Origin: an uncultured Myxococcales bacterium
GTDB taxonomy: Bacteria; Myxococcota_A; UBA9042; CAIXZC01
Direction: 5' to 3'
Assembly (NCBI GenBank): GCA_964593355.1
Contig: CAZQHM010000002.1
Coordinates: 99,747 to 163,746, forward strand
Length of the DNA: 64,000 nt
Part shown: positions 1,042 to 55,827 of the stretch, piece by piece
Layout: every line of letters begins with the position of its first letter
Position numbering within the stretch: the first letter of the stretch is position 1
Notes under the pieces: model-generated
Seen by the model: only the letters and a program-made list of their open reading frames with translations
Told to the model about the DNA's origin: nothing
Databases searched by the model: none
Program-made: the position numbers and the translations under genes

Positions 1042-2226
1042 TTAGAGCTTCAGATGCTTCCGAATACGACTTGCGGCCTCTTCTACCTGCTCCAGGCGAG
1101 GCACCAGCGCGAATCGGACATACTGGTCACCAGGGTTGGTGCCGTCGTGGGCCGTGTCCGTTATCCACGCCCCGGGCGTCACTACCAACGCCAGATCGTC
1201 CGCCAGAAGCTTCTTGGCAAACTCCACCGAATCGTATCCATCCGGTACCCGCTGCCATACATAGAACGTCGCCTCGGGCATCTCAACTGTCAGGCCAGCA
1301 TCACTCAGAGCCCCCAGCAGAACGTCCCGCTTGCTGCGGTAGAGATTGCGCATGTAGGAAACATGCTCTTCGTCCCCTAGCGCTGCTATGGCACCGTCTT
1401 GTATAAAACTCGGAGTTCCCGAATCTATATTTGTCTTAAGTTTCTTCATGTTACCAATTACATTTGCATCCCCCGCTGCCCAGCCAACCCTGTATCCTGT
1501 CATGTTGTTTCTTTTCGACATTGAATAGAATGTAATCACGCCCTCTTTAGCAACTTCAAGAATCGAGTGCGGCTTCTCATCATAATAAATATCAATATAG
1601 CATCCCTCGTCGGCAGCGACAAGGATTTCGTATTTTTGGGCCCAATCCACAAGCTTCTTATAGTATTCAATTGAGGCAATACGGCCCGTGGGCGAATTCG
1701 GATAGTTTATCCAGATAATCTTGGCCTTGCGGGCAATCTCTTCTGGAATCGACTCGAAATCCAACATAAACCCGTTGGCCTCGGTCAAGGGCGCAAAATA
1801 GGGAATCCCCTCCGCAAAGAGGGTGCCACGCTTCATCGGTGGATAGCCCGGAGTAGGGATTATCACCACGTCACCGGGATCGAGATAGGCCTCGGGGAAG
1901 TTGAAGATGGCCTCTTTGGAACCCAGCGTTGCACAAATCTCCGTGGCAGGATCAAGCCGGACGCCGAACCTGCGCTGCATCCATTGGGCCGCCGCTGTTC
2001 GGTACGACTCCATGCCTATGTAGCTGGGATAGCCCGTGCATGCATGGTCATCCACCCCCTTCTGAGTAGCCTTGCGAACCAGTTCCGGCGTTGGGTCCAG
2101 GGGATCCCCAACTCCAAAATCGATGGCCTTGATGCCTCGCTCCTGAAGCTGCGCCACAAGTCTGTCCACTTCAGCAAAGGCGTATCCGCCAAGTGACTGC
2201 AATCGTTTCGATGGAGATATGCTCAT
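1042..2226 (-). CDS. PLP-dependent class I/II aminotransferase, LL-diaminopimelate aminotransferase (DapL)-like
   Basis: N-terminal KRLQSLGGYAFAEVD...IDFGVGDP and the SMSKRNNMTGYRVGW PLP-lysine segment. Start re-placed at internal MSISPSK with an upstream GGAGG. The 150-aa N-terminal extension in the ORF track runs through the GGCGAC repeat and is rejected. Confidence 0.6.
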   Translation of the reverse strand: MSISPSKRLQSLGGYAFAEVDRLVAQLQERGIKAIDFGVGDPLDPTPELVRKATQKGVDDHACTGYPSYIGMESYRTAAAQWMQRRFGVRLDPATEICATLGSKEAIFNFPEAYLDPGDVVIIPTPGYPPMKRGTLFAEGIPYFAPLTEANGFMLDFESIPEEIARKAKIIWINYPNSPTGRIASIEYYKKLVDWAQKYEILVAADEGCYIDIYYDEKPHSILEVAKEGVITFYSMSKRNNMTGYRVGWAAGDANVIGNMKKLKTNIDSGTPSFIQDGAIAALGDEEHVSYMRNLYRSKRDVLLGALSDAGLTVEMPEATFYVWQRVPDGYDSVEFAKKLLADDLALVVTPGAWITDTAHDGTNPGDQYVRFALVPRLEQVEEAASRIRKHLKL

Positions 2227-2289: not shown

Positions 2290-2600
2290 CTTCACCACTG
2301 GTCCCGCCGGCCAGGGGACAGAGCTATGCCGGCGACGGCGACGGCGACGGAAACGGAAACGGCCACGGGCTGCAGGAGAACGGCGGGACAGTGGGACCGG
2401 GGACAGAGCTATGCCGGCGACGGCGACGGCGACGGGGAACAGGAGAACGGCGGGACTGCGTACGGAGCAATGCCGGCGACGGCGACGGCGACGGAAACGG
2501 GAACGGCGACGGGGAACAGGAGAACGCCTCAGAGCGGCCAGGAAAATCCCCTCTCCCGGTCCGGGAGAGGGCAGGATGAGGGCCTCACCGTGATGGGCGC
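2290..2600. repeat. GC-rich intergenic tandem repeat with three ~90-bp units, each carrying a (GGCGAC)3 core followed by GGAAAC/GGGAAC hexamers
   Basis: Direct reading shows ggcgacggcgacggcgacgg three times with the shared flank gacagagctatgccggcgacgg. All frames are open (poly-Arg and DGDGDGNGNG artefact ORFs). Related to the elements at 53440-53700 and 54060-54260. Confidence 0.7.
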
Positions 2601-3433
2601 CAGCGAGACCAATTCCCGTTTGGAACCGGAATGACGTCGGCCGCACCGGTGAGCAGCATCTCGCCGCACTCAAGGGTGCCCGGCCCCAGGAGCTGGTCCA
2701 GGAGGTTCCTCAGCACTATGGGCGATAGCCCCGGCGTGTGGCTGGTCAACAGAACAAAGGACGGTTTGTCCGAAAGCACCGCCTTGCACCCCTTCAAGGT
2801 GGTCATCAGATCCTTCTCGATCTTGTACAGCTCTCCCTTCTTCCCTCGCCCGAAGGAGGGGGGGTCGAGGATAATGGCATCGTACTTCTTCTGGCGGCTC
2901 TGCTCGCGCACCAGGAACTTGATCACGTCGTCCACGATCCAACGGATTGGGGCAGACTCCAGACCGTTTAGCTGGGCGTTCTCTCGGGCCCAGTCGACCA
3001 TACCCTTGGATGCGTCCAGATGACACACCTTCGCCCCCGATCTGGCAGCGGCCATGGTCGCCCCGCCAGAGTAGGCAAAGAGGTTCAATACGTTGAGCTC
3101 CTGGGAGCGGGACCGCTGGTCGTTGGTCAGGGTTGCGGTGATCCAGTTCCACAGATCCCGGGTCTCTGGGAAGACCCCAAGATGACCGAAATCCGTGGTG
3201 GAGAGTCGCATCTTGATGTCGTTGATGGTAACGACCCAGCTCTCGGGAAGCTTCTCCCGCCCCTTCCAGTTGAGGCCGTCTACTCTATCGAAGGTTGCGC
3301 TGGCACGGCCCCACAGCTCCGGTCTAGCCGGCTCCCAAATGGCCTGCGCACAGGGGCGGGCTAGGACAATGCTGCCGAATCTCTCCAGCTTTGCCCCGTG
3401 CCCGCTATCGACCAGTTCGTACTGATTCATCAC
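2585..3433 (-). CDS. Class I SAM-dependent RNA methyltransferase, RlmI/YccW catalytic-domain-like
   Basis: Motifs [15 protein letters not shown] (SAM binding), [19 protein letters not shown] and [15 protein letters not shown] (DPPxF-like). Confidence 0.6.
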
Positions 3434-7189: not shown

Positions 7190-10100
7190 TTAGCCCCCGC
7201 AAGTTACCTTTATAGTATAGCTGCCTTCTTCGCCATTATAGCCGTCAATTACTATGAAGTAGGTGTTGCCTGCAACAGCATCGATGGTGATGTCGTTCAA
7301 GCCCCAGTCCATGCACTCCGAGGCCAGGCACGATCCGTCAGAGGCTTCGCTCAACACCATAATGTCGAGATCGGCACTCTCGTCGCTGAGCGTGAAAGTC
7401 ACTGGGCCCGTGGCTTCGGCCTGGAAGATATAGGTGTACTCGGCGCCGGGGTAGTCGAAGAAGTTGCACCCATAGTTGTCCAGAAGATCCGTTGCGCCAG
7501 GATTCAAGGTCGACCAGGAGTCAGATGAATCACAGTAGAGGGTCCAGTCCGGCACGCACTGGTCAAAGGGACACGCCTCGCTGCCTGGCAGGCAGTCCTC
7601 GCTGTCTTCGCAGTCTACAAGCCCGTCCTGGTCATCGTCGATGCCGTCGGAGCAGTTCTGTTCGGTCAGTGGCACGCAGCCCACGGTGATGGTGAAGAGG
7701 CCGGTTCCCGGCAAGGCGCCACCCTCGAAGCCGTCGACCACGAAGAAGTAGGTCTTGCCCGCCTCAGCCTGGAACGATGCCGTCGAATAGTCAAAGGCTA
7801 TGCAGGCTGTGGGCTGGCAACCGGTTCCCGAAGACTCAAGGATCATGACGTCGGTGTCGGCTTCTTCCTCGGAGAGGGTCACAGTTACCGTGGCGTCGTA
7901 TTCTGCTGTAAAGCTGTATGTGTATTCAGGAGCAGAATAAGTAAATATAGAGCAGGGATAGCTTTCTATGACATCAGTGCTGCCTGTCCAGGAGTTGTCC
8001 CATCGGTCGGTTCCACCACATACCAGTGTCCAGTCGGGTTGGCACACGCCGCAAAGCTGCGTTCCGCCGGGCTGGCATACACCTTCCAGGCAGAAGTCTC
8101 CTTCGGTGCACGGGTCGTTGTCATCGCAGGCGCCGTCGAAGTTGGCGGCTATGCAGCCCACCACGGGGTCGCATGAATCGGTGGTGCACTGGTTGCCGTC
8201 GTTGCAATCGGGTGCGCCGGTGCCGGTGCAGAGGCCCTGCTGGCAGAGGTCCGTGAGCGTGCAGGCGTTGGAGTCGTCACACAGTCGGTCATCGGGGGCA
8301 TTGATCTTCTCGCACAGCCCCGTGGCCGGAACGCACTCGGTGCGCTGGCACTGGGTATCGGAGGAGGTGTCGCAGGTGACGATAGAGTCGGGATCGATGA
8401 GGCACTTGTAGCCAATGCAGCGGTAGACACCATTGCAGAGGTCTTCGTCGTCACGCTCGGCACAGTCGGCATCAACGGTGCATGTGCACTCTGGGTTGGG
8501 CTGGCCCTTGCATACGCCTTGAACGCAGATGTCGTCCAGCGTGCAGTAGTCGTTATCGTTGCAGGAGTTGTTGTTGTAGGTGTAGACGCAGCCTATTGCG
8601 CTGCTGCAGCCGTCCGACGTGCAGATGTTGCCGTCGTCGCAGACGATGTTCTGGCCCTTGCACAGGCCCCCTACGCAGGTGTCGTTCTTGGTGCAAGCGT
8701 TGGCATCATCGCAGGTGGTAGCATCGGCAGCGGCCTTGACTTCGCAGGCCCCAGTCTCGGGGATGCAGGCCACGGTCTGGCATGAGGTGGTGGGGACGTC
8801 GGCGCAATCCACGACCGAACCCTCTTTCACCACGCAGCGCTTGTTGATGCAACTCATGACTCCGTTGCACAGATCACCGTCGTCAACGCAATCCTCGTCG
8901 GTGTTGCAGTTACAGGTGGGATCGGGGTCGCCCACGCAGGCGCCGTTGACGCACTTATCGTTGATGGTGCAGGGGTCGCCATCGCCGCAATTCCCCTCTT
9001 TGGGTGCATTCACGCATCCCGTTGCAGGATCACAAGAGTCCTGGGTGCAGGCGTTGTTGTCGTTGCAGGCCACTGGCAGACCAACGCAAGCGCCCGCAGA
9101 GCAGTAGTCGTCTTTGGTGCAGGCGTTGGCGTCGTTGCAGGCCGTGCCGTTGAGTGCAAGCTTGTTCTCGCACTCGCCGGTGGAAGGATTGCATGCGTTG
9201 GTCTTGCAAGGATTGTCCGTGCCAGGGCACATGACAATAGAGGTAGGATCGTTCTTGCACTGCCCTGAGATGCACTTCACAAGACCGTTGCAGAGATTGC
9301 CGTCTTCGAACTGCTGGCACTCAACGTCGCTGGTGCAGCCGCTGCAGTCGGGCAAGGGTTCGCCTGTGCAGACGCCCTGCTTGCAGCCGTCGTCCTTCGT
9401 ACAGAGGTCGCCGTCGTTGCAGGAGGTTCCGTCGGGGGCCGAGGTCTTGGTGCAGCCGGTCGCCGGGTCGCAACTGTCCGTGGTGCACGGGTTGCCGTCG
9501 TTGCAGTTCACCGTAGTGCCCAGGCACGTCCCGGCCGTACACGTCTCATCCTTGGTGCAGGCGTTTCCATCGCTGCACGGCTTGCCGTTCTCCAAGTTCT
9601 TGTACTTGCACTGGCCGTCCTGAGGATCGCAAGAGACGCTCTTACAGGCCACCTCGGGCATGTTGCTGCAGTCGACCGCACTCGTAGGATCGGCCACGCA
9701 CTCCTGGTTGATGCACTTCACAAGACCGTTGCAGAGATTGCCGTCGTCGTACTTCACGCAGTCGGCGTCCCCCGTGCATGGATCGCATATGGTCTCGCCG
9801 CCAACACAGGCCCCATCCTTGCAGGCGTCGTCCTTGGTGCACTTGTTGCCGTCGTCGCAAGGCTGGGTGTTGTTGACGAACTGGCATTCGCCAGTTTCGG
9901 GGTTGCACTGGTCGTCAGTGCAGATACTACCGTCCGAGCATGCTTTGGGCTGCCCCTTGCACTGCCCTTGCAGGCACTGGTCGTTGTCCGTGCACTTGTC
10001 ACCATCATCACAAATCTTCCCGTTGGTCGAATCGATGACCTGACATACCTTGTCTACACAGGCAATCTCCTGACACGGACCGGGAAGCCCCTTGCCCGTG

Positions 10101-44339: not shown

Positions 44340-44671
44340 TTATTCTTCCTATTCACATTAACGGAATACTTATCTACTATTGCTACAACGGCAGCATCTA
44401 TGGGGCGGGTTGGTTTGGCGTTGGGCGCCAGCTCCGGCTCCACGGCCATTCTTCCCGCATGCCCATAAGCAACAATCACATCCTCACCCACACCAGCCCC
44501 CAAGATATCGGCAACAACGACACCGTCACCTGCTCCAGTGGGCGGCGCATCGGGGTCACTGGATAGGTCCGCCAGATGGTATGGCCTCACCACCAGAAAC
44601 TTCATCCCTTCAAGCCCTTCCCACTTCACCGTGGACCAGACGGTTCCAACAACCCGTGCCAGAAACATCAC
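44336..44671 (-). CDS. EutN/CcmL/PduN family BMC vertex (pentamer) protein, paralog 1
   Basis: MMFLARVVGTVWSTVKWEGLEGMKFLVV...VVADILGAGVGEDVIVAYGHAGR...PIDAAVVAIVD fits the EutN/CcmL consensus. 4-nt overlaps with both neighbours. Confidence 0.8.
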   Translation of the reverse strand: MMFLARVVGTVWSTVKWEGLEGMKFLVVRPYHLADLSSDPDAPPTGAGDGVVVADILGAGVGEDVIVAYGHAGRMAVEPELAPNAKPTRPIDAAVVAIVDKYSVNVNRKNK

Positions 44672-44982
44672 ACCCCTCCCTGGGTATCGAAGAGCTGCTC
44701 CAAATCCGTATATCCATCAACTATTCGGCATATTGCTGCTTCACAAAGTATTGATGAATCATTCTCCAAGCCAAACACTTTTCTTGCTCCGCTGCCCCAC
44801 GTCACCACCACCAGATGGCCCGTATCAGCCCCCATTCGGTCTCGAGCCACCACCACTTCACCCGTAGGGAGCAGCCGTCCATCACTCTGCTCCAGTCCAG
44901 CCACAAGCAGCATCTTGGCCCCGCTCAGTCGCTCATGCTTCTTGGTTGCCCAAACTTCGCCAATGACCTTGCCAAGCATCAT
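44668..44982 (-). CDS. EutN/CcmL family BMC vertex protein, paralog 2
   Basis: MMLGKVIGEVWATKKHERLSGAKMLLV...GSGARKVF...ILCEAAICRIVDG. Start overlaps the paralog-3 stop (ATGATG). Confidence 0.75.
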   Translation of the reverse strand: MMLGKVIGEVWATKKHERLSGAKMLLVAGLEQSDGRLLPTGEVVVARDRMGADTGHLVVVTWGSGARKVFGLENDSSILCEAAICRIVDGYTDLEQLFDTQGGV

Positions 44983-45368
44983 GGCGTCGCCTCTTCCTGA
45001 GAGTTGCCGCTGGCCGCTCCTGGTGAAAGCAGTTCCAAGGTGGCAATAGGATGATCTTCCCGAAGACGGAAGGGAATTTCTGGGTCCGTAAGGGCCGAAG
45101 CATCTATTTGGGTCCGGTCTACAATGGCCATGACGCTGGCCTCTATGGGGGTGCGAGCATCGCCCGCTTGCCAGCGTCCGGGGGCTCCCATGCAAACCAC
45201 CACGTCCTGCCCCTCTTCGGCACCCACCTTGTCCACGGCTATCAGGTTGTCTACGGCATGGGAGGGACGATACCAGAAATAGGGGCGCACGATGACCATC
45301 TTCAGATCGGCTAGCCGCTGGCTCTTCCTGGTTGCCCAGACTGTCCCCACTACGCTGCCGAGAATCAT
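44979..45368 (-). CDS. EutN/CcmL family BMC vertex protein, paralog 3 (C-terminal ~35-aa extension)
   Basis: MILGSVVGTVWATRKSQRLADLKMVIVRPY...AVDKVGAEEGQDVVVCMGAPGR...PIEASVMAIVD. Confidence 0.75.
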   Translation of the reverse strand: MILGSVVGTVWATRKSQRLADLKMVIVRPYFWYRPSHAVDNLIAVDKVGAEEGQDVVVCMGAPGRWQAGDARTPIEASVMAIVDRTQIDASALTDPEIPFRLREDHPIATLELLSPGAASGNSQEEATP

Positions 45369-45700
45369 CTCCTATCCCCGCCCAGCAGCGCTCTGTCCAC
45401 CTCACAAGAGTCTACAATGGCCACCACCACATCTTTGACCGGCATGCTCTGACCCACCGTGAGATCACGCACCCTCGAACCATGGGCCACCAGAACGTAC
45501 TCACCCACCCCAGCTCCAAGCTGGTCCACGGCCAGGCGCACGGCACCCCCTAATACGGGTGCTGGCCCATCGGCCGACAGCGCCAGCGTCCCCCTGCCCG
45601 CCGTCATGGCCAGAGGCTGAACCTTGACTATCTTGGCACCACGGAGATTCTCGCTCTCCTTGGCGCCCCATACCGTACCCGTGATACGACCGAGCAACAT
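45365..45700 (-). CDS. EutN/CcmL family BMC vertex protein, paralog 4
   Basis: MLLGRITGTVWGAKESENLRGAKIVKV...AVDQLGAGVGEYVLVAHGSRVR...PVKDVVVAIVD. GGAGGGAAG RBS. Confidence 0.75.
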   Translation of the reverse strand: MLLGRITGTVWGAKESENLRGAKIVKVQPLAMTAGRGTLALSADGPAPVLGGAVRLAVDQLGAGVGEYVLVAHGSRVRDLTVGQSMPVKDVVVAIVDSCEVDRALLGGDRR

Positions 45701-52133: not shown

Positions 52134-53387
52134 TCACTTCCGTAGGCCCATCCCCCCAGCCCGAATCTGCTCCACCGCACGACAAATAGCCCCTACCGCA
52201 TAGTCAATCTCCTCCTCGGTATTCTCGTGGCTCAAAGAGACCCGTATGGACTCCCGAGCCTCCTCCTGGCTGCGCCCCGCTGCCATTAGAACCCTCGATG
52301 GCTCGTCGCTCTGGCTAGCACAAGCAGACCCAGTGGAGACCGCTACCCCCTCTATGTCCAGAAGAATCATGAGCATCTGACCGCTCACCCCACTGAAACT
52401 GAGGTTGCTGGTGTTGGGCAGCCGAGTGGCCTCGCTGCCGTTGACCCGAAGGCCATCAACCATAACGCTCAGTCTCTCCTCCAAGGTGTCCCGCAGCTTC
52501 GCTACATACAGCGCACGCTCCACCATCTTCTCGCTGGCCTCCTCAGCCGCTCTCGCCATCCCCGCTATCCCCGCTACGTTCTCCGTCCCCGCCCTCTGCC
52601 CACGCTCCTGCTTGCCCCCCAGGAGCAGAGCCGGCAACTTCACGCCACGTCGTTTCAACAGCAGACCCACTCCCCGAGGACCGTGAAACTTGTGCGCCGA
52701 GACCGTCATCAGATCGACCCCCAGAGCACCAAAATCCACGGGCACTTTGCCCACTGCCTGCACCGCATCCACATGCATCAGAACCCCAGCTTCACGAGCT
52801 ATGGCCGCAAGCTCCCTGATAGGCTGGATGACCCCCAGATCGTTGTTCGCCAGCATCACCGAAACCAGATTGGTGATACACGGCTGCTCAGATATCTCCA
52901 TCCCCCCAGCAGCCGTGTACCCTGAGCGAGGCCAAGGCCGAGTCGAAGGGGGGGAGAGATTGGTGAGCGGTGGTCTAGCCCTCAGTACCCCCGATAACGC
53001 CGAAACGTCAACTACTCCACGGGCGTCCACCGGCAACAAACTCACCTCCACTCCCATTCCCTCCAGATGCCTGCAAGTTGAGTAGACCGAGGCGTGCTCT
53101 ATGCCGCTGGTGACTATGTGGCACGCTCCACCGTGAAGCTCCGCAATGCCCCTCAGAACCTGGTTGTTGCTCTCCGTCCCGCTCCCCGTGAAGAAGACCT
53201 CCTCCGCCGATGCACCCAGGAATCGGCCAAGAGCGTACCTCGCCTTGTCCAGTATCCTCCGCCCCTCTGACCCAAAATCGTGGATGCTGGAAGGGTTCCC
53301 CCAACACCGCTCCATGGTCTCCGCTACAACCTGGGTCACCCCACGGGAAGGTCTCGTCGTCGCATTGTTGTCCAGATACACTCTCAT
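52134..53387 (-). CDS. Cysteine desulfurase (NifS/IscS/YrvO-like), carrying a ~35-aa insertion relative to canonical IscS
   Basis: PLP lysine SAHKFHGPRG. Active-site STGSACAS. Start at MRVYLDNNATT. The upstream ORF extension runs into repeat B and is rejected. Confidence 0.8.
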   Translation of the reverse strand: MRVYLDNNATTRPSRGVTQVVAETMERCWGNPSSIHDFGSEGRRILDKARYALGRFLGASAEEVFFTGSGTESNNQVLRGIAELHGGACHIVTSGIEHASVYSTCRHLEGMGVEVSLLPVDARGVVDVSALSGVLRARPPLTNLSPPSTRPWPRSGYTAAGGMEISEQPCITNLVSVMLANNDLGVIQPIRELAAIAREAGVLMHVDAVQAVGKVPVDFGALGVDLMTVSAHKFHGPRGVGLLLKRRGVKLPALLLGGKQERGQRAGTENVAGIAGMARAAEEASEKMVERALYVAKLRDTLEERLSVMVDGLRVNGSEATRLPNTSNLSFSGVSGQMLMILLDIEGVAVSTGSACASQSDEPSRVLMAAGRSQEEARESIRVSLSHENTEEEIDYAVGAICRAVEQIRAGGMGLRK

Positions 53388-53439: not shown

Positions 53440-53700
53440 GTCAAGAGGAGCCGTCGCATCCAGGTGCGGATCCGCTGCCGGGGAGAGGGACGTCCAACGA
53501 GCGCCCTTCGTGGCCGTAGTCCCTCCGAAGCGACAGCGAAGGTGGGTTGACGTCGACGTCGACGTCGCCGAACGGTCCAGCAACGTGACTGAGCCCATTT
53601 GCTCCCCGGTTCGGGAACCGAACCTGTCGCATCCAGGCGCGGATCCGCTGCCGGGGAGCTGGACGTCCAAACTCCGGCCTGGGGCCGATTCGCCCCGTCG
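53440..53700. repeat. Structured GC-rich repeat element B: two ~50-nt direct repeats (each holding the palindrome GCGGATCCGC) flank a core with (GACGTC)3 and the hairpin GGTTCGGGAACCGAACC
   Basis: Direct comparison with 54106-54215 in inverted orientation gives ~80% identity over ~110 nt. It also shares a hexamer core with 2290-2600. Confidence 0.7.
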
Positions 53701-53740
53701 GGACAGAAATGGTGTTCGCTGATTCTGGTTGGAAGGCTGG

Positions 53741-54001
53741 TTATTTCTTCTCAAGCTCGCAGGCTGGTTCAACCTTGTAATATTCACAAAGTTTCCTGCA
53801 TTTTTCCTTATCTCCCTTAGTGCAAGCTTCCATACCTATCAACTTCAGTTTGGCACATGCTGCCTCGTCCTTATCCACATCGCATGTCTCAACACATGCT
53901 CCCCACTCGCCCTTATCCAGGCAATCGCCCTTCTTGCTGTTGCATCCAAAACCGAAGCTAATAACCACAAGCAACACCACTACACCAAATCCTCTCTTCA
54001 T
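53741..54001 (-). CDS. Small Cys/Lys/Glu-rich lipoprotein (86 aa; 10 Cys), encoded in a low-GC island flanked by inverted repeats
   Basis: AGGAGG RBS. Signal MKRGFGVVVLLVVISFGFGC. The mature 66-aa peptide has nine Cys. Local GC is roughly 43% against ~60% for the window. Confidence 0.6.
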   Translation of the reverse strand: MKRGFGVVVLLVVISFGFGCNSKKGDCLDKGEWGACVETCDVDKDEAACAKLKLIGMEACTKGDKEKCRKLCEYYKVEPACELEKK

Positions 54002-54059: not shown

Positions 54060-54260
54060 ACTACGCTTCCCCATGGAAGGCAACGGGCTTGACGCCCGCG
54101 GGTGCGGATCCCAAACCGGGGAGCAAATGGACTCTGTCACGCTGGTACACGGTTCGGCGACGGCGACGGCGACGTCAACCCGCCTTTGGCGGGGCTACGG
54201 CCACGAAATGCACCCGGCTGACGTAGCGGTCCCCGGCAACGTAACCGCACCCACGCCCCG
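54060..54260. repeat. Repeat element C: inverted copy of the core of element B, with (GGCGAC)3 in place of (GACGTC)3
   Basis: The reverse complement of 54106-54215 aligns to 53497-53612: ttcgtggccgtag...gggttgacgtcgccgtcgccgtcgccgaac...agtccatttgctccccgg. Confidence 0.7.
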
Positions 54261-54327
54261 CGGCATCAGATAGTCCCGGCTCATCAGGCAATTATGGGAT
54301 CTCAAAGATAATAAAGCGTTAATACGG

Positions 54328-55827
54328 CTACTTACAGACAACTGCAGTATAGACCGCCCGGTCCTCGGTCCCTGGCCAATATCCGGCCCCCGGCGACGAA
54401 GCCCAAAATGCCGAGGAACCACCTCCATCCAAGTTCAGAGCCTCCACACACCCCTGCGATATCATGTAGTCCGCCAGCTCCGGCAAAGTGAATCCTCTTG
54501 CCTTAACTGTATCGTTTTGCGCTGCTAAAACCATAATACTTCCGTCGTCTAATATGCATATGGCACTCCTGGGCAGTGGAGAGCTGGGGCTTATGCCCGA
54601 GGTTCCGAAGTCTTCTAACTCATACTGCTGCCAAAATACGTTCTGCCCCCCGGAAACCAGGATGGGACCAGCACAGACCACGTCCGAAGCCTCGGGAAAC
54701 AACCCCGGACCCCACGTCCCTCCTCCCAGGAAATTCCTGCCCATAGAGACCCCTATCCCCGCTGTCCGCTCCTCCTTGTCGTACCACAGACAGCCCCTCG
54801 GCCCCTTCACATTCCCCGATGGACTCTCATAGCCCAACTGCCCCTTCGCATAAGAGACCGGCCCCTGGCCCGACGCAAAATAGCCGCCGTTCACCGCCCC
54901 CCTCGCCCCAACCACCGGCAATGCCATGTTCTGGACAGTCTTGGCCGACCCGCTCCCCGTAACTACCAAATCATGCTCCAGGTCCGCCGTGGGAAACCGC
55001 ACCCTCCTGACGGTGAACCCGTTCCCGTTCGAGTCCGTCTTGCTCTGACTGTCAACAAGAAAGGCCCCCTGGATAGTTATCTTGACCTCCGACGTTGCCT
55101 CGCACCCAGACTCCCCAACCACCTTGACGGAGATGGTTCTTTCAATACCAGGAGTATTAAAAACATATTGATAGTCATACGATGATGTAGAAACTTGTTT
55201 GCTACCCAAGACGTACAGTTCGTCTGCTGTAAAAGTCAGCTTTCCTGGCACGCAATTAGAACTTCCATAGAAACTAATCGCTTTTCCAACAACCCCCTTG
55301 TTGTTGTCTGTCTTAATCGTTACATACGGTTCCTGCGCGGAAAGGTCCTCTTCCCCCGAATCGGGCCAATCAACATCAACCTCCTCCGCTTGATCCCCCG
55401 GTCCAACCAAATCGCCCAAATCCCAAGCCCCGTCCAAGCCATCCCCTGCATCGGCCACCTGGTCCTGACCCCACTGATCCCCATGGCCCAAATCGGCAAG
55501 CTCCTGAAGATCCACCGTCACCAGTTCCCAAGCGTCTACGCTCCCTTGGTCGACACTCCCTTGATCACCAGTCACACCATCCTGTAAGCCCGCCCCGTCC
55601 AACACAACTCTGGCGTCAGAAACCGTGTCGTCCTTGCCCAATCCCCCTTCACCCCAGAAGTCCCATGAGCCGGCATCCGGGAACTTCACCTCGCCCGTGA
55701 CCACATCAGACCCACCACCACCCCCGCACCCCAGAACTGACACGATACACAGCAGCAAGGGATAAGCCCCAAAACAGACTTTGCCCCCTTCAACCGCAGA
55801 ATCCTTTGGCGCTGAAAACCCAGCCAT
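54328..55827 (-). CDS. Secreted phosphodiester glycosidase family protein (DUF2233/NAGPA-like C-domain) with an acidic N-terminal region
   Basis: The C-terminal LNLDGGGSS and GGYF..GQGP segments are typical of the phosphodiester glycosidase family. Signal with lipobox-like LGCGGGGG. Confidence 0.55.
   Translation of the reverse strand: MAGFSAPKDSAVEGGKVCFGAYPLLLCIVSVLGCGGGGGSDVVTGEVKFPDAGSWDFWGEGGLGKDDTVSDARVVLDGAGLQDGVTGDQGSVDQGSVDAWELVTVDLQELADLGHGDQWGQDQVADAGDGLDGAWDLGDLVGPGDQAEEVDVDWPDSGEEDLSAQEPYVTIKTDNNKGVVGKAISFYGSSNCVPGKLTFTADELYVLGSKQVSTSSYDYQYVFNTPGIERTISVKVVGESGCEATSEVKITIQGAFLVDSQSKTDSNGNGFTVRRVRFPTADLEHDLVVTGSGSAKTVQNMALPVVGARGAVNGGYFASGQGPVSYAKGQLGYESPSGNVKGPRGCLWYDKEERTAGIGVSMGRNFLGGGTWGPGLFPEASDVVCAGPILVSGGQNVFWQQYELEDFGTSGISPSSPLPRSAICILDDGSIMVLAAQNDTVKARGFTLPELADYMISQGCVEALNLDGGGSSAFWASSPGAGYWPGTEDRAVYTAVVCK

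Follow-up and report, generated by a model that had tools for sequence, protein, structure and literature searches.

Dispersed GC-rich repeats from a probable Myxococcota lineage comprise a MITE family and a non-coding tandem array

Two of the three GC-rich intergenic repeat loci in the window (the whole stretch of DNA that was analysed, 64 kb), at 53462-53625 and 54100-54252, are copies of a MITE, a non-autonomous transposon of about 155 bp. We consider it likely that the dispersed element is a MITE mobilised in trans and that the third locus, at 2306-2534, is a lineage-specific non-coding array, with no function indicated at the RNA level. As far as we have checked the MITE family is new, and it probably comes from an uncultured Myxococcota lineage. 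The element is of an ordinary kind, and the feature worth pursuing is the fixed distance that its copies keep to promoters.

Repeat loci and their genomic setting

The initial annotation had joined the three loci into one family. A dispersed, intergenic, GC-rich family does exist and has further copies, but the locus at 2290-2600 shares only the core with it. The neighbouring genes had been described as lying on one strand, and those around all three loci are indeed on the minus strand:

1042-2226, minus strand: class I/II aminotransferase, of the LL-diaminopimelate type by its homologues (dapL-like)
2585-3433, minus strand: SAM methyltransferase
52134-53387, minus strand: class V aminotransferase of the cysteine desulfurase type
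53741-54001, minus strand: 86-aa Cys-rich protein with a lipoprotein-like signal (the small lipoprotein gene)
54328-55827, minus strand: NAGPA-domain protein

The occurrences of the window organism that we found are all in metagenome assemblies. The closest DapL with a named source belongs to an uncultured Myxococcales MAG, GCA_964442235.1 (77% identity, with gene order partly kept), and the MITE left end is matched exactly over 24 nt on another of that assembly's contigs. Elsewhere in the window, a large gene at 8100-9860 contains many Cys-rich repeats (repeat families TGCA...GTCGTTGCA), and its counterpart in another assembly is annotated with a Dicty_CTDC domain; at about 44340-45700, four EutN/CcmL-type genes (the microcompartment vertex protein family, as annotated on the matching contig) stand in a row.

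Exact (GGCGAC)3 occurs on the plus strand at 2331, 2416, 2475 and 54156, with a GACGTC variant at 53552-53569, and within the 64 kb the exact trimer is confined to the flagged loci. When up to three mismatches are allowed, the window contains 10 matches against 0.12 expected, so the observation of hexamer repeats is real. The bare trimer was also found in at least 120 viral contigs; being common in unrelated DNA, it is a poor family marker when alone, and it was dropped as a search key for lack of specificity.

Structure and copies of the MITE family

The two full copies in the window (here L and R), their target-site duplications and an adjoining fragment are as follows:

53453-53461: left 9-bp target-site duplication of copy L, GTCGCATCC, with its right copy at 53626-53634 (9/9)
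53462-53625, plus strand: MITE copy L, 164 bp, long-hairpin subfamily, core mutated to GACGTC
53635-53714, plus strand: truncated second MITE copy, adjoining the right duplication of copy L
54100-54252, minus strand: MITE copy R of 153 bp, in the opposite orientation to copy L; it belongs to the short-hairpin subfamily and its (GTCGCC)3 core is intact
54253-54261: 9-bp target-site duplication of copy R, GCGGGGCGT on the element strand; its partner at 54091-54099 reads GCGGGCGTC

The duplication of copy R matches at 8/9 positions once a 1-nt deletion is allowed for. The inverted copies L and R are 76-79% identical to each other (162 nt at 76%, E 1e-27), with inverted arms at 53525-53624 and 54101-54200. 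The possibility that they bound a composite transposon containing the small lipoprotein gene was rejected, since each copy has its own 9-bp duplication. At its left end the truncated copy matches copy L at 93% identity for 45 nt and diverges beyond; because the two have a pair of private substitutions in common, the fragment looks like a local duplication followed by deletion and not a separate arrival, the alternative being a second insertion at the same 9-bp target as copy L.

To look beyond the window, we scanned metagenomes with an 18-base internal pattern, which returned 23 loci, 15 of them with the element, whole or as far as the contig reaches. After removal of duplicates (L177 duplicates L188, L176 and L190 are orthologues, and L185 represents the window locus, with copy L sampled again), 14 independent insertion sites remained, two in the window and twelve on metagenome contigs that may not share the window's genome. 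The search for additional copies that the initial annotation had proposed is thereby answered by 12 more independent insertions outside the window. The copies lie between long ORFs in flanks that cannot be aligned with one another, and in an anchored alignment their ends are sharp and common to all, GGGTGCGG...CCGCACCC.

Copies range in size from 152 to 211 bp, the basic form having 153-164 bp and the larger ones carrying extra modules, with a GC content of 67%. Every full copy has imperfect terminal inverted repeats of about 23 nt (GGGTGCGGWTCCGTTGCCGGGGA ... TCCCCGGTTYGGGAWCCGCACCC), and the ends GGGTGCGGWTCCGTTGCCGGGGA and GGGTGCGGWTCCCRAACCGGGGA are complementary at about 19 of 23 positions. 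Between them lies a core with a small hairpin and the (GTCGCC)3 run, which occupies the centre of the element. The family divides into two subfamilies, one of 153 bp with the hairpin CCCGCCAAAGGCGGG and one of 163-164 bp with a longer hairpin, with identities of 89-97% within and 79-87% between them: copy L is 92-93% identical to L172, L183 and L189, and copy R is 91-96% identical to L176, L190, L182, L186 and L188. In four copies, one or two examples of an extra 31/32-nt module, AGCTTGCCCCGCCGAAGCCTTGGCGAAGGGGG, lie within the hexamer core:

L174:2015-2225, module-bearing MITE copy
L175:3157-3366, module-bearing MITE copy
L180:6578-6762, module-bearing MITE copy
L191:2879-3063, module-bearing MITE copy

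GTNNCC hexamers always adjoin this module, which looks like a separate small repeat in its own right.

The target-site duplications recur across the family. Six of the 13 scorable copies have perfect 9-bp duplications (9/9) and 11 match at 7/9 or better, with a mean of 7.5/9 for cognate flanks, as against a mean of 2.6/9 and a maximum of 6 among 156 non-cognate flank pairs, none of which reached 7. Most reading frames of the element are interrupted by stops; one frame of 51 aa is open in 13/14 copies, and a protein search found no relatives of it. Prokaryotic MITEs are defined as small elements (about 50-800 bp) with terminal inverted repeats of at least 10-15 bp, a target-site duplication of 2-10 bp, no coding capacity and dispersed copies (PMC11602168, PMC10969869). 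Small, non-coding, dispersed between genes and bounded by terminal inverted repeats and 9-bp duplications, the element fits this definition.

The assemblies of the window loci that we compared are all identical, the nearest other relatives being about 79% identical at the protein level, and no empty site was recovered. Three contigs from other, short-read samples start or stop inside the repeats or at their edges (L003:1, L201:1 and the end of L002), which is consistent with a multi-copy state in the source genome. The orthologous loci L176 and L190 are near-identical over the MITE, with one difference in it, and over about 110 nt of flank; in the downstream Ogt-like gene the N-terminal part is about 50-60% identical and the sequence further on about 93-95%, so that the stretch some 60-250 nt downstream of the MITE has a mosaic, recombination-like pattern. 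We drew no inference of purifying selection from this pair, given that the identity extends through the 110 nt of flank and that the locus has a mosaic pattern.

A close parallel among the systems that we compared is MITEAba12 of Acinetobacter, an element of 113 bp with 16-bp imperfect terminal repeats and 9-bp duplications, for which ISAba12 is the proposed parent (PMC6382973). Both elements are small and non-coding, have imperfect terminal inverted repeats and 9-bp duplications, are dispersed at mostly intergenic sites and are presumed to be mobilised in trans; unlike MITEAba12, with which it has no sequence similarity, the present MITE is GC-rich (67%) and not AT-rich, has longer terminal repeats (23 nt) and yielded no parent IS (PMC6382973). 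In its modular build the family is also reminiscent of the BrickBuilt MITE of Porphyromonas gingivalis, which carries a variable minisatellite of 23-nt repeats inside the element (PMC4596501), and of the pneumococcal BOX elements, with their A-Bn-C modules (PMC10969869). All of these combine conserved end modules with a central short tandem repeat and are always intergenic (PMC4596501, PMC10969869), and the 32-nt module of the present MITE is likewise present zero, one or two times. In contrast to BrickBuilt, the present element has at its centre a (GTCGCC)3 run that is fixed, and its 9-bp duplications are clear (PMC4596501), and unlike both BrickBuilt and BOX, a related repeat also occurs in free arrays without MITE ends (2306-2534 and L182:9150-9520).

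Search for a parent element

Neither the window nor the fetched loci yielded an autonomous element whose ends match, and the fetched loci were also free of lone or distant terminal repeats. An IS with a DDE transposase lies beside dapL in a relative, and its ends are unrelated to those of the MITE; the viral contigs and plasmid collections that we searched contained no parent IS. Among species-representative genomes, a set that does not include the source genome, the terminal-repeat pattern gave 47 single matches in unrelated taxa, attributable to chance, the exception being the 24-nt exact solo end in the Myxococcales MAG GCA_964442235.1. As no autonomous element was found, we infer mobilisation in trans. 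In keeping with established transposon biology, a transposase supplied in trans would bind the MITE ends, make staggered cuts 9 bp apart and insert the element, which would give rise to the 9-bp direct duplications. Duplications of 9 bp are made by several IS families, so the IS family to which the MITE belongs cannot be named from them.

The tandem array at 2306-2534

The third locus is organised differently, in direct units between a terminator-like hairpin and a predicted promoter:

2306-2534: head-to-tail array of three non-coding units with no inverted ends, start spacing 85 and 59 nt
2306-2382, 2391-2467 and 2450-2526: the three array units, all direct
2331-2366, plus strand: hexamer run of unit 1, (GGCGAC)3 (GGAAAC)2 GGCCAC, with equivalents at 2416-2433 and 2475-2510
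2541-2571, minus strand: hairpin resembling a terminator, CCCTCTCCCGG A CCGGGAGAGGG, then GATTTTCC, immediately past the methyltransferase gene and outside the units
2284-2256, minus strand: predicted promoter-like site of the dapL-type gene, TTGCCT at 2284-2279, a 17-nt spacer and TACCAT at 2261-2256

The three tandem units that had been reported are present and direct, but their spacing is 85 and 59 nt and not about 90 bp throughout. In each unit (GGCGAC)3 is followed by GGAAAC, GGGAAC or GGCCAC hexamers, the first two of which had been correctly described, and the flank said to be shared, GACAGAGCTATGCC, occurs in units 1 and 2, whereas unit 3 has GGAGCAATGCC. Such a head-to-tail arrangement of three units, spaced by 85 and 59 nt, is the one expected of a minisatellite or VNTR.

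Two further assemblies contain the array unchanged, and in a third a break falls within it. Relatives with 76-79% identical DapL have an orthologous spacer of 93-142 nt upstream of dapL in which the array is absent, indicating a lineage-specific expansion, and their dapL promoter-like site is at the same place (TTGCCC-N17-TAACAT). The array appears to be ordinary neutral repeat DNA, which would most likely have expanded through slippage or unequal recombination in the interval from the methyltransferase terminator to the dapL-type promoter. In relatives, the dapL promoter spacers (L196:5940-5990, L198:880-930) contain CCGTTTCC and CGTTCCCGTTT, which resemble the array hexamers GTTTCC and GTTCCC and may represent the seed of the array or a coincidence. 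An 8-bp direct repeat, CGGCCAGG, flanks the array at 2308-2315 and 2535-2542; as there are no inverted ends, it may be due to chance.

How the array relates to the MITE is less direct. The core and adjacent sequence had been described as common to all three loci; an 18-25 nt hexamer core is common to them (E 0.003), but the spacers at 2290-2600 are not significantly similar to the MITE. One clear relative of the array was identified, L182:9150-9520 (spacer similarity p ~0.004), in which 9268-9437 has a period of 90 with 1.9 copies at 97% matches, and beside its hexamers the 31-nt module occurs twice in reverse complement (9159-9189 and 9439-9469). On the strength of this module, of the GTNNCC run and of the order in which short motifs follow one another in both array and MITE (CGTGGCCGT, then the GTNNCC run, then ...CCCCGG), we judge that the array was probably derived from the MITE core or shares an ancestor with it. 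The array could instead be an independent local minisatellite that converged on (GGCGAC)3, so that the supposed family would be two unrelated things, a reading that we regard as possible but doubtful. It would account for the alignment of array and MITE over the hexamer core alone, for the failure of a MITE profile (HMM) search to match 2306-2534, for array spacers whose similarity to the MITE outside the hexamers is not significant (p 0.2-0.5) and for the frequency of the trimer in unrelated DNA. It fits less well with the only other such array, that of L182, having beside its hexamers two copies of a module otherwise found only in MITE cores, with the occurrence of the exact trimer at these loci only within 64 kb, and with the motif order found in both, although CGTGGCCGT occurs seven times in the window.

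Long ORFs do cross the repeats, as the initial annotation had stated in calling them spurious. Since 85 and 59 are not multiples of three, the frame differs from unit to unit, and the long ORFs are low-complexity artefacts. That the repeats nevertheless code for small proteins, or for an sRNA such as a GGA-rich protein sponge read from the plus strand at 2290-2546, strikes us as extremely improbable. ORFs of 102-128 aa do run across the array, one of which gene callers annotated in other assemblies, the plus strand is GGA-rich, and one MITE frame is open in nearly all copies (13/14); the shifts in frame, however, give differing low-complexity peptides, protein searches with the MITE and array pseudo-ORFs gave no match, no plus-strand promoter or terminator was found, Rfam had no match and there is no excess structure. 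We rejected a coding or GGA-rich sRNA role of the array because the frame shifts between units, no plus-strand promoter or terminator signals were found, and neither strand folds more stably than shuffled sequences (z scores of +1.7 and +0.3).

RNA-level readings

The repeats had been interpreted as a REP/BIME-like family of structured RNAs that punctuate mRNA. What we find in its place is an element of about 155 bp whose terminal inverted repeats and 9-bp duplications are marks of cut-or-copy transposition at the DNA level and not of REPs. Co-transcription in polycistronic mRNAs had also been put forward on the basis of gene orientation; it is not implied, given the promoter-like sites downstream of the elements and the terminator-like hairpin before the array. 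In addition to the site upstream of dapL, the following promoter-like sites are predicted:

53444-53416, minus strand: promoter-like site of the cysteine desulfurase gene, TTGACC at 53444-53439, a 17-nt spacer and TAGAAA at 53421-53416
54083-54055, minus strand: promoter-like site of the small lipoprotein gene, TTGCCT at 54083-54078, a 17-nt spacer and TAGATA at 54060-54055

Multiple perfect hairpins had been expected in the repeats, but only one is present in 2229-2584, the terminator-like stem at 2549-2571, which lies outside the units. The consensus fold of the MITE approximates to the terminal repeats paired with each other plus small internal hairpins, and its folding is modestly stronger than that of shuffled sequence (folded as RNA, copy R has a z of -2.4 and copy L one of -1.3; folded as DNA, a consensus-like copy has a z of -3.1). 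The covariation analysis that had been suggested did not favour an RNA structure, the covariation term being +0.46 kcal/mol with compensatory change in just 2 of 46 pairs; the single real swap at the level of subfamilies is a G-C to A-U change in the internal hairpin, in three copies. Searches of Rfam 15 gave no match at gathering thresholds or at E<=1, and copies lie in both orientations relative to transcription, the window having one of each. Taken together, the missing Rfam match, the near absence of covariation and the two orientations indicate that the MITE is not an RNA-level element.

To our knowledge, REPs make no target duplication. REPs are short palindromes that cluster in alternating orientation and are linked to Y1 (HUH) RAYT transposases, and they lack terminal inverted repeats of the kind found in this MITE (PMC3333891, PMC2817692). 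The present repeats are like REPs and BIMEs in being GC-rich, intergenic, highly repeated, capable of forming stem-loops and found in mosaics with other motifs; they differ in that the dispersed unit is about 155 bp and not an imperfect palindrome of about 20-40 nt, the 59-85 nt array units have no inverted repeats, and the three units at 2306-2534 are all direct where BIMEs alternate (PMC3333891, PMC2817692). Co-transcribed palindromes whose hairpins punctuate or stabilise mRNA would suit loci that are repeated, GC-rich and intergenic, a MITE that folds as a long imperfect hairpin, and neighbouring genes on one strand. We nevertheless think this reading very unlikely, in view of a unit far from a palindrome of 20-40 nt, direct array units without excess structure, insertion in both orientations relative to transcription with covariation close to zero, and the positions of the promoter-like sites downstream of the elements and of the terminator upstream of the array. 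The accompanying proposal that the repeats may be a substrate for recombination is plausible.

Promoter-proximal insertion

The MITE copies lie at a recurrent distance from predicted promoters. From the left end of copy L it is 17 nt to the -35 hexamer of the desulfurase gene, which starts 18 nt beyond the end, and from the right end of copy R it is 16 nt to that of the lipoprotein gene, which starts 17 nt beyond. Across the family, a TTGnnn -35-like hexamer lies at position 14-19 beyond one end in 11/14 copies (a gap of 13-18 nt, mostly 17); the histogram of TTG positions peaks at 18, with seven flanks at exactly 18. Given a TTG background of 0.021 per position, the binomial P is about 1e-5, a value computed post hoc after the pattern had been noticed. 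By eye, in the anchored flanks, a -10-like TAnnnT follows 16-17 nt past the TTG hexamer, making these predicted promoters, and a stricter scan found a full predicted promoter site in 6/13 copies; at least eight of the promoter-like sites are followed by a Shine-Dalgarno sequence and start codon. In a twelfth copy (L190/L176) the -10 is good and stands where expected, but the -35 is poor. With that copy included, the promoter lies beyond the right end nine times and beyond the left end three times, and the solo end in the Myxococcales MAG (L010:1009-1078) has the same spacing to a -35-like hexamer.

MITE insertions would pile up, by target choice or selection, in the narrow space directly upstream of promoters, with the element end typically 17 bp from the -35 hexamer. 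We tentatively raise the possibility that the MITE is promoter-directed, in the sense that the transposition machinery, or strong selection right after insertion, sets its end 17 bp upstream of the -35. The 9-bp target would then lie at about -53 to -45 and the terminal repeat at about -54 to -76, in either orientation. The phase is present in 5/6 copies with perfect duplications, which leans towards target choice over slow selection, the sample being small and the promoters predicted; insertion in this phase could perhaps be guided by promoter-bound RNA polymerase or another promoter-bound protein. A transposase that recognises promoter sequence resembling its own terminal repeat was also considered and dropped, as the TTGCC motif is inconsistently placed in the two ends.

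The same spacing could reflect a domesticated regulatory cassette, in which the terminal repeat, at about -54 to -76, is a protein-binding site kept by selection. The fixed 17-bp gap to -35-like hexamers, found in 11/14 copies whichever end faces the promoter, would agree with such a role, as would the high conservation of the terminal repeats and the internal hairpin, the latter with one compensatory change between subfamilies. The spacing is also seen, however, in copies with perfect duplications, which are presumably young, target choice fits it equally, and conserved terminal repeats are expected of any active MITE; we therefore consider domestication unlikely.

Among the elements compared, the likeness in position is to the Correia elements of Neisseria. 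Correia elements duplicate TA. They are abundant MITEs situated mostly immediately upstream of genes, where they could affect the expression of neighbours, as could the present family, and they have their own promoters and an IHF site (PMC10969869). In the present family, unlike Correia, the promoter-like sites lie in the host flank at a fixed 17 bp and the duplication is 9 bp. A fixed promoter distance like that of the present MITE is not among the features given for MITEAba12 in the accessible text of its description (PMC6382973).

Implications

For annotation, these elements explain why spurious ORFs appear and contigs break here, and they point to a family of mobile elements in an uncultured, Myxococcota-like lineage about which little is known. 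If the promoter-directed reading is true, it would add a promoter-phased mode of insertion for a bacterial DDE-type element, and, should target choice be responsible, a targeting rule that is unusual among bacterial transposons. A single 23-bp protein-binding sequence would then have been planted upstream of many genes, and by delivering one sequence repeatedly to the upstream-activator position the family could rewire transcription.
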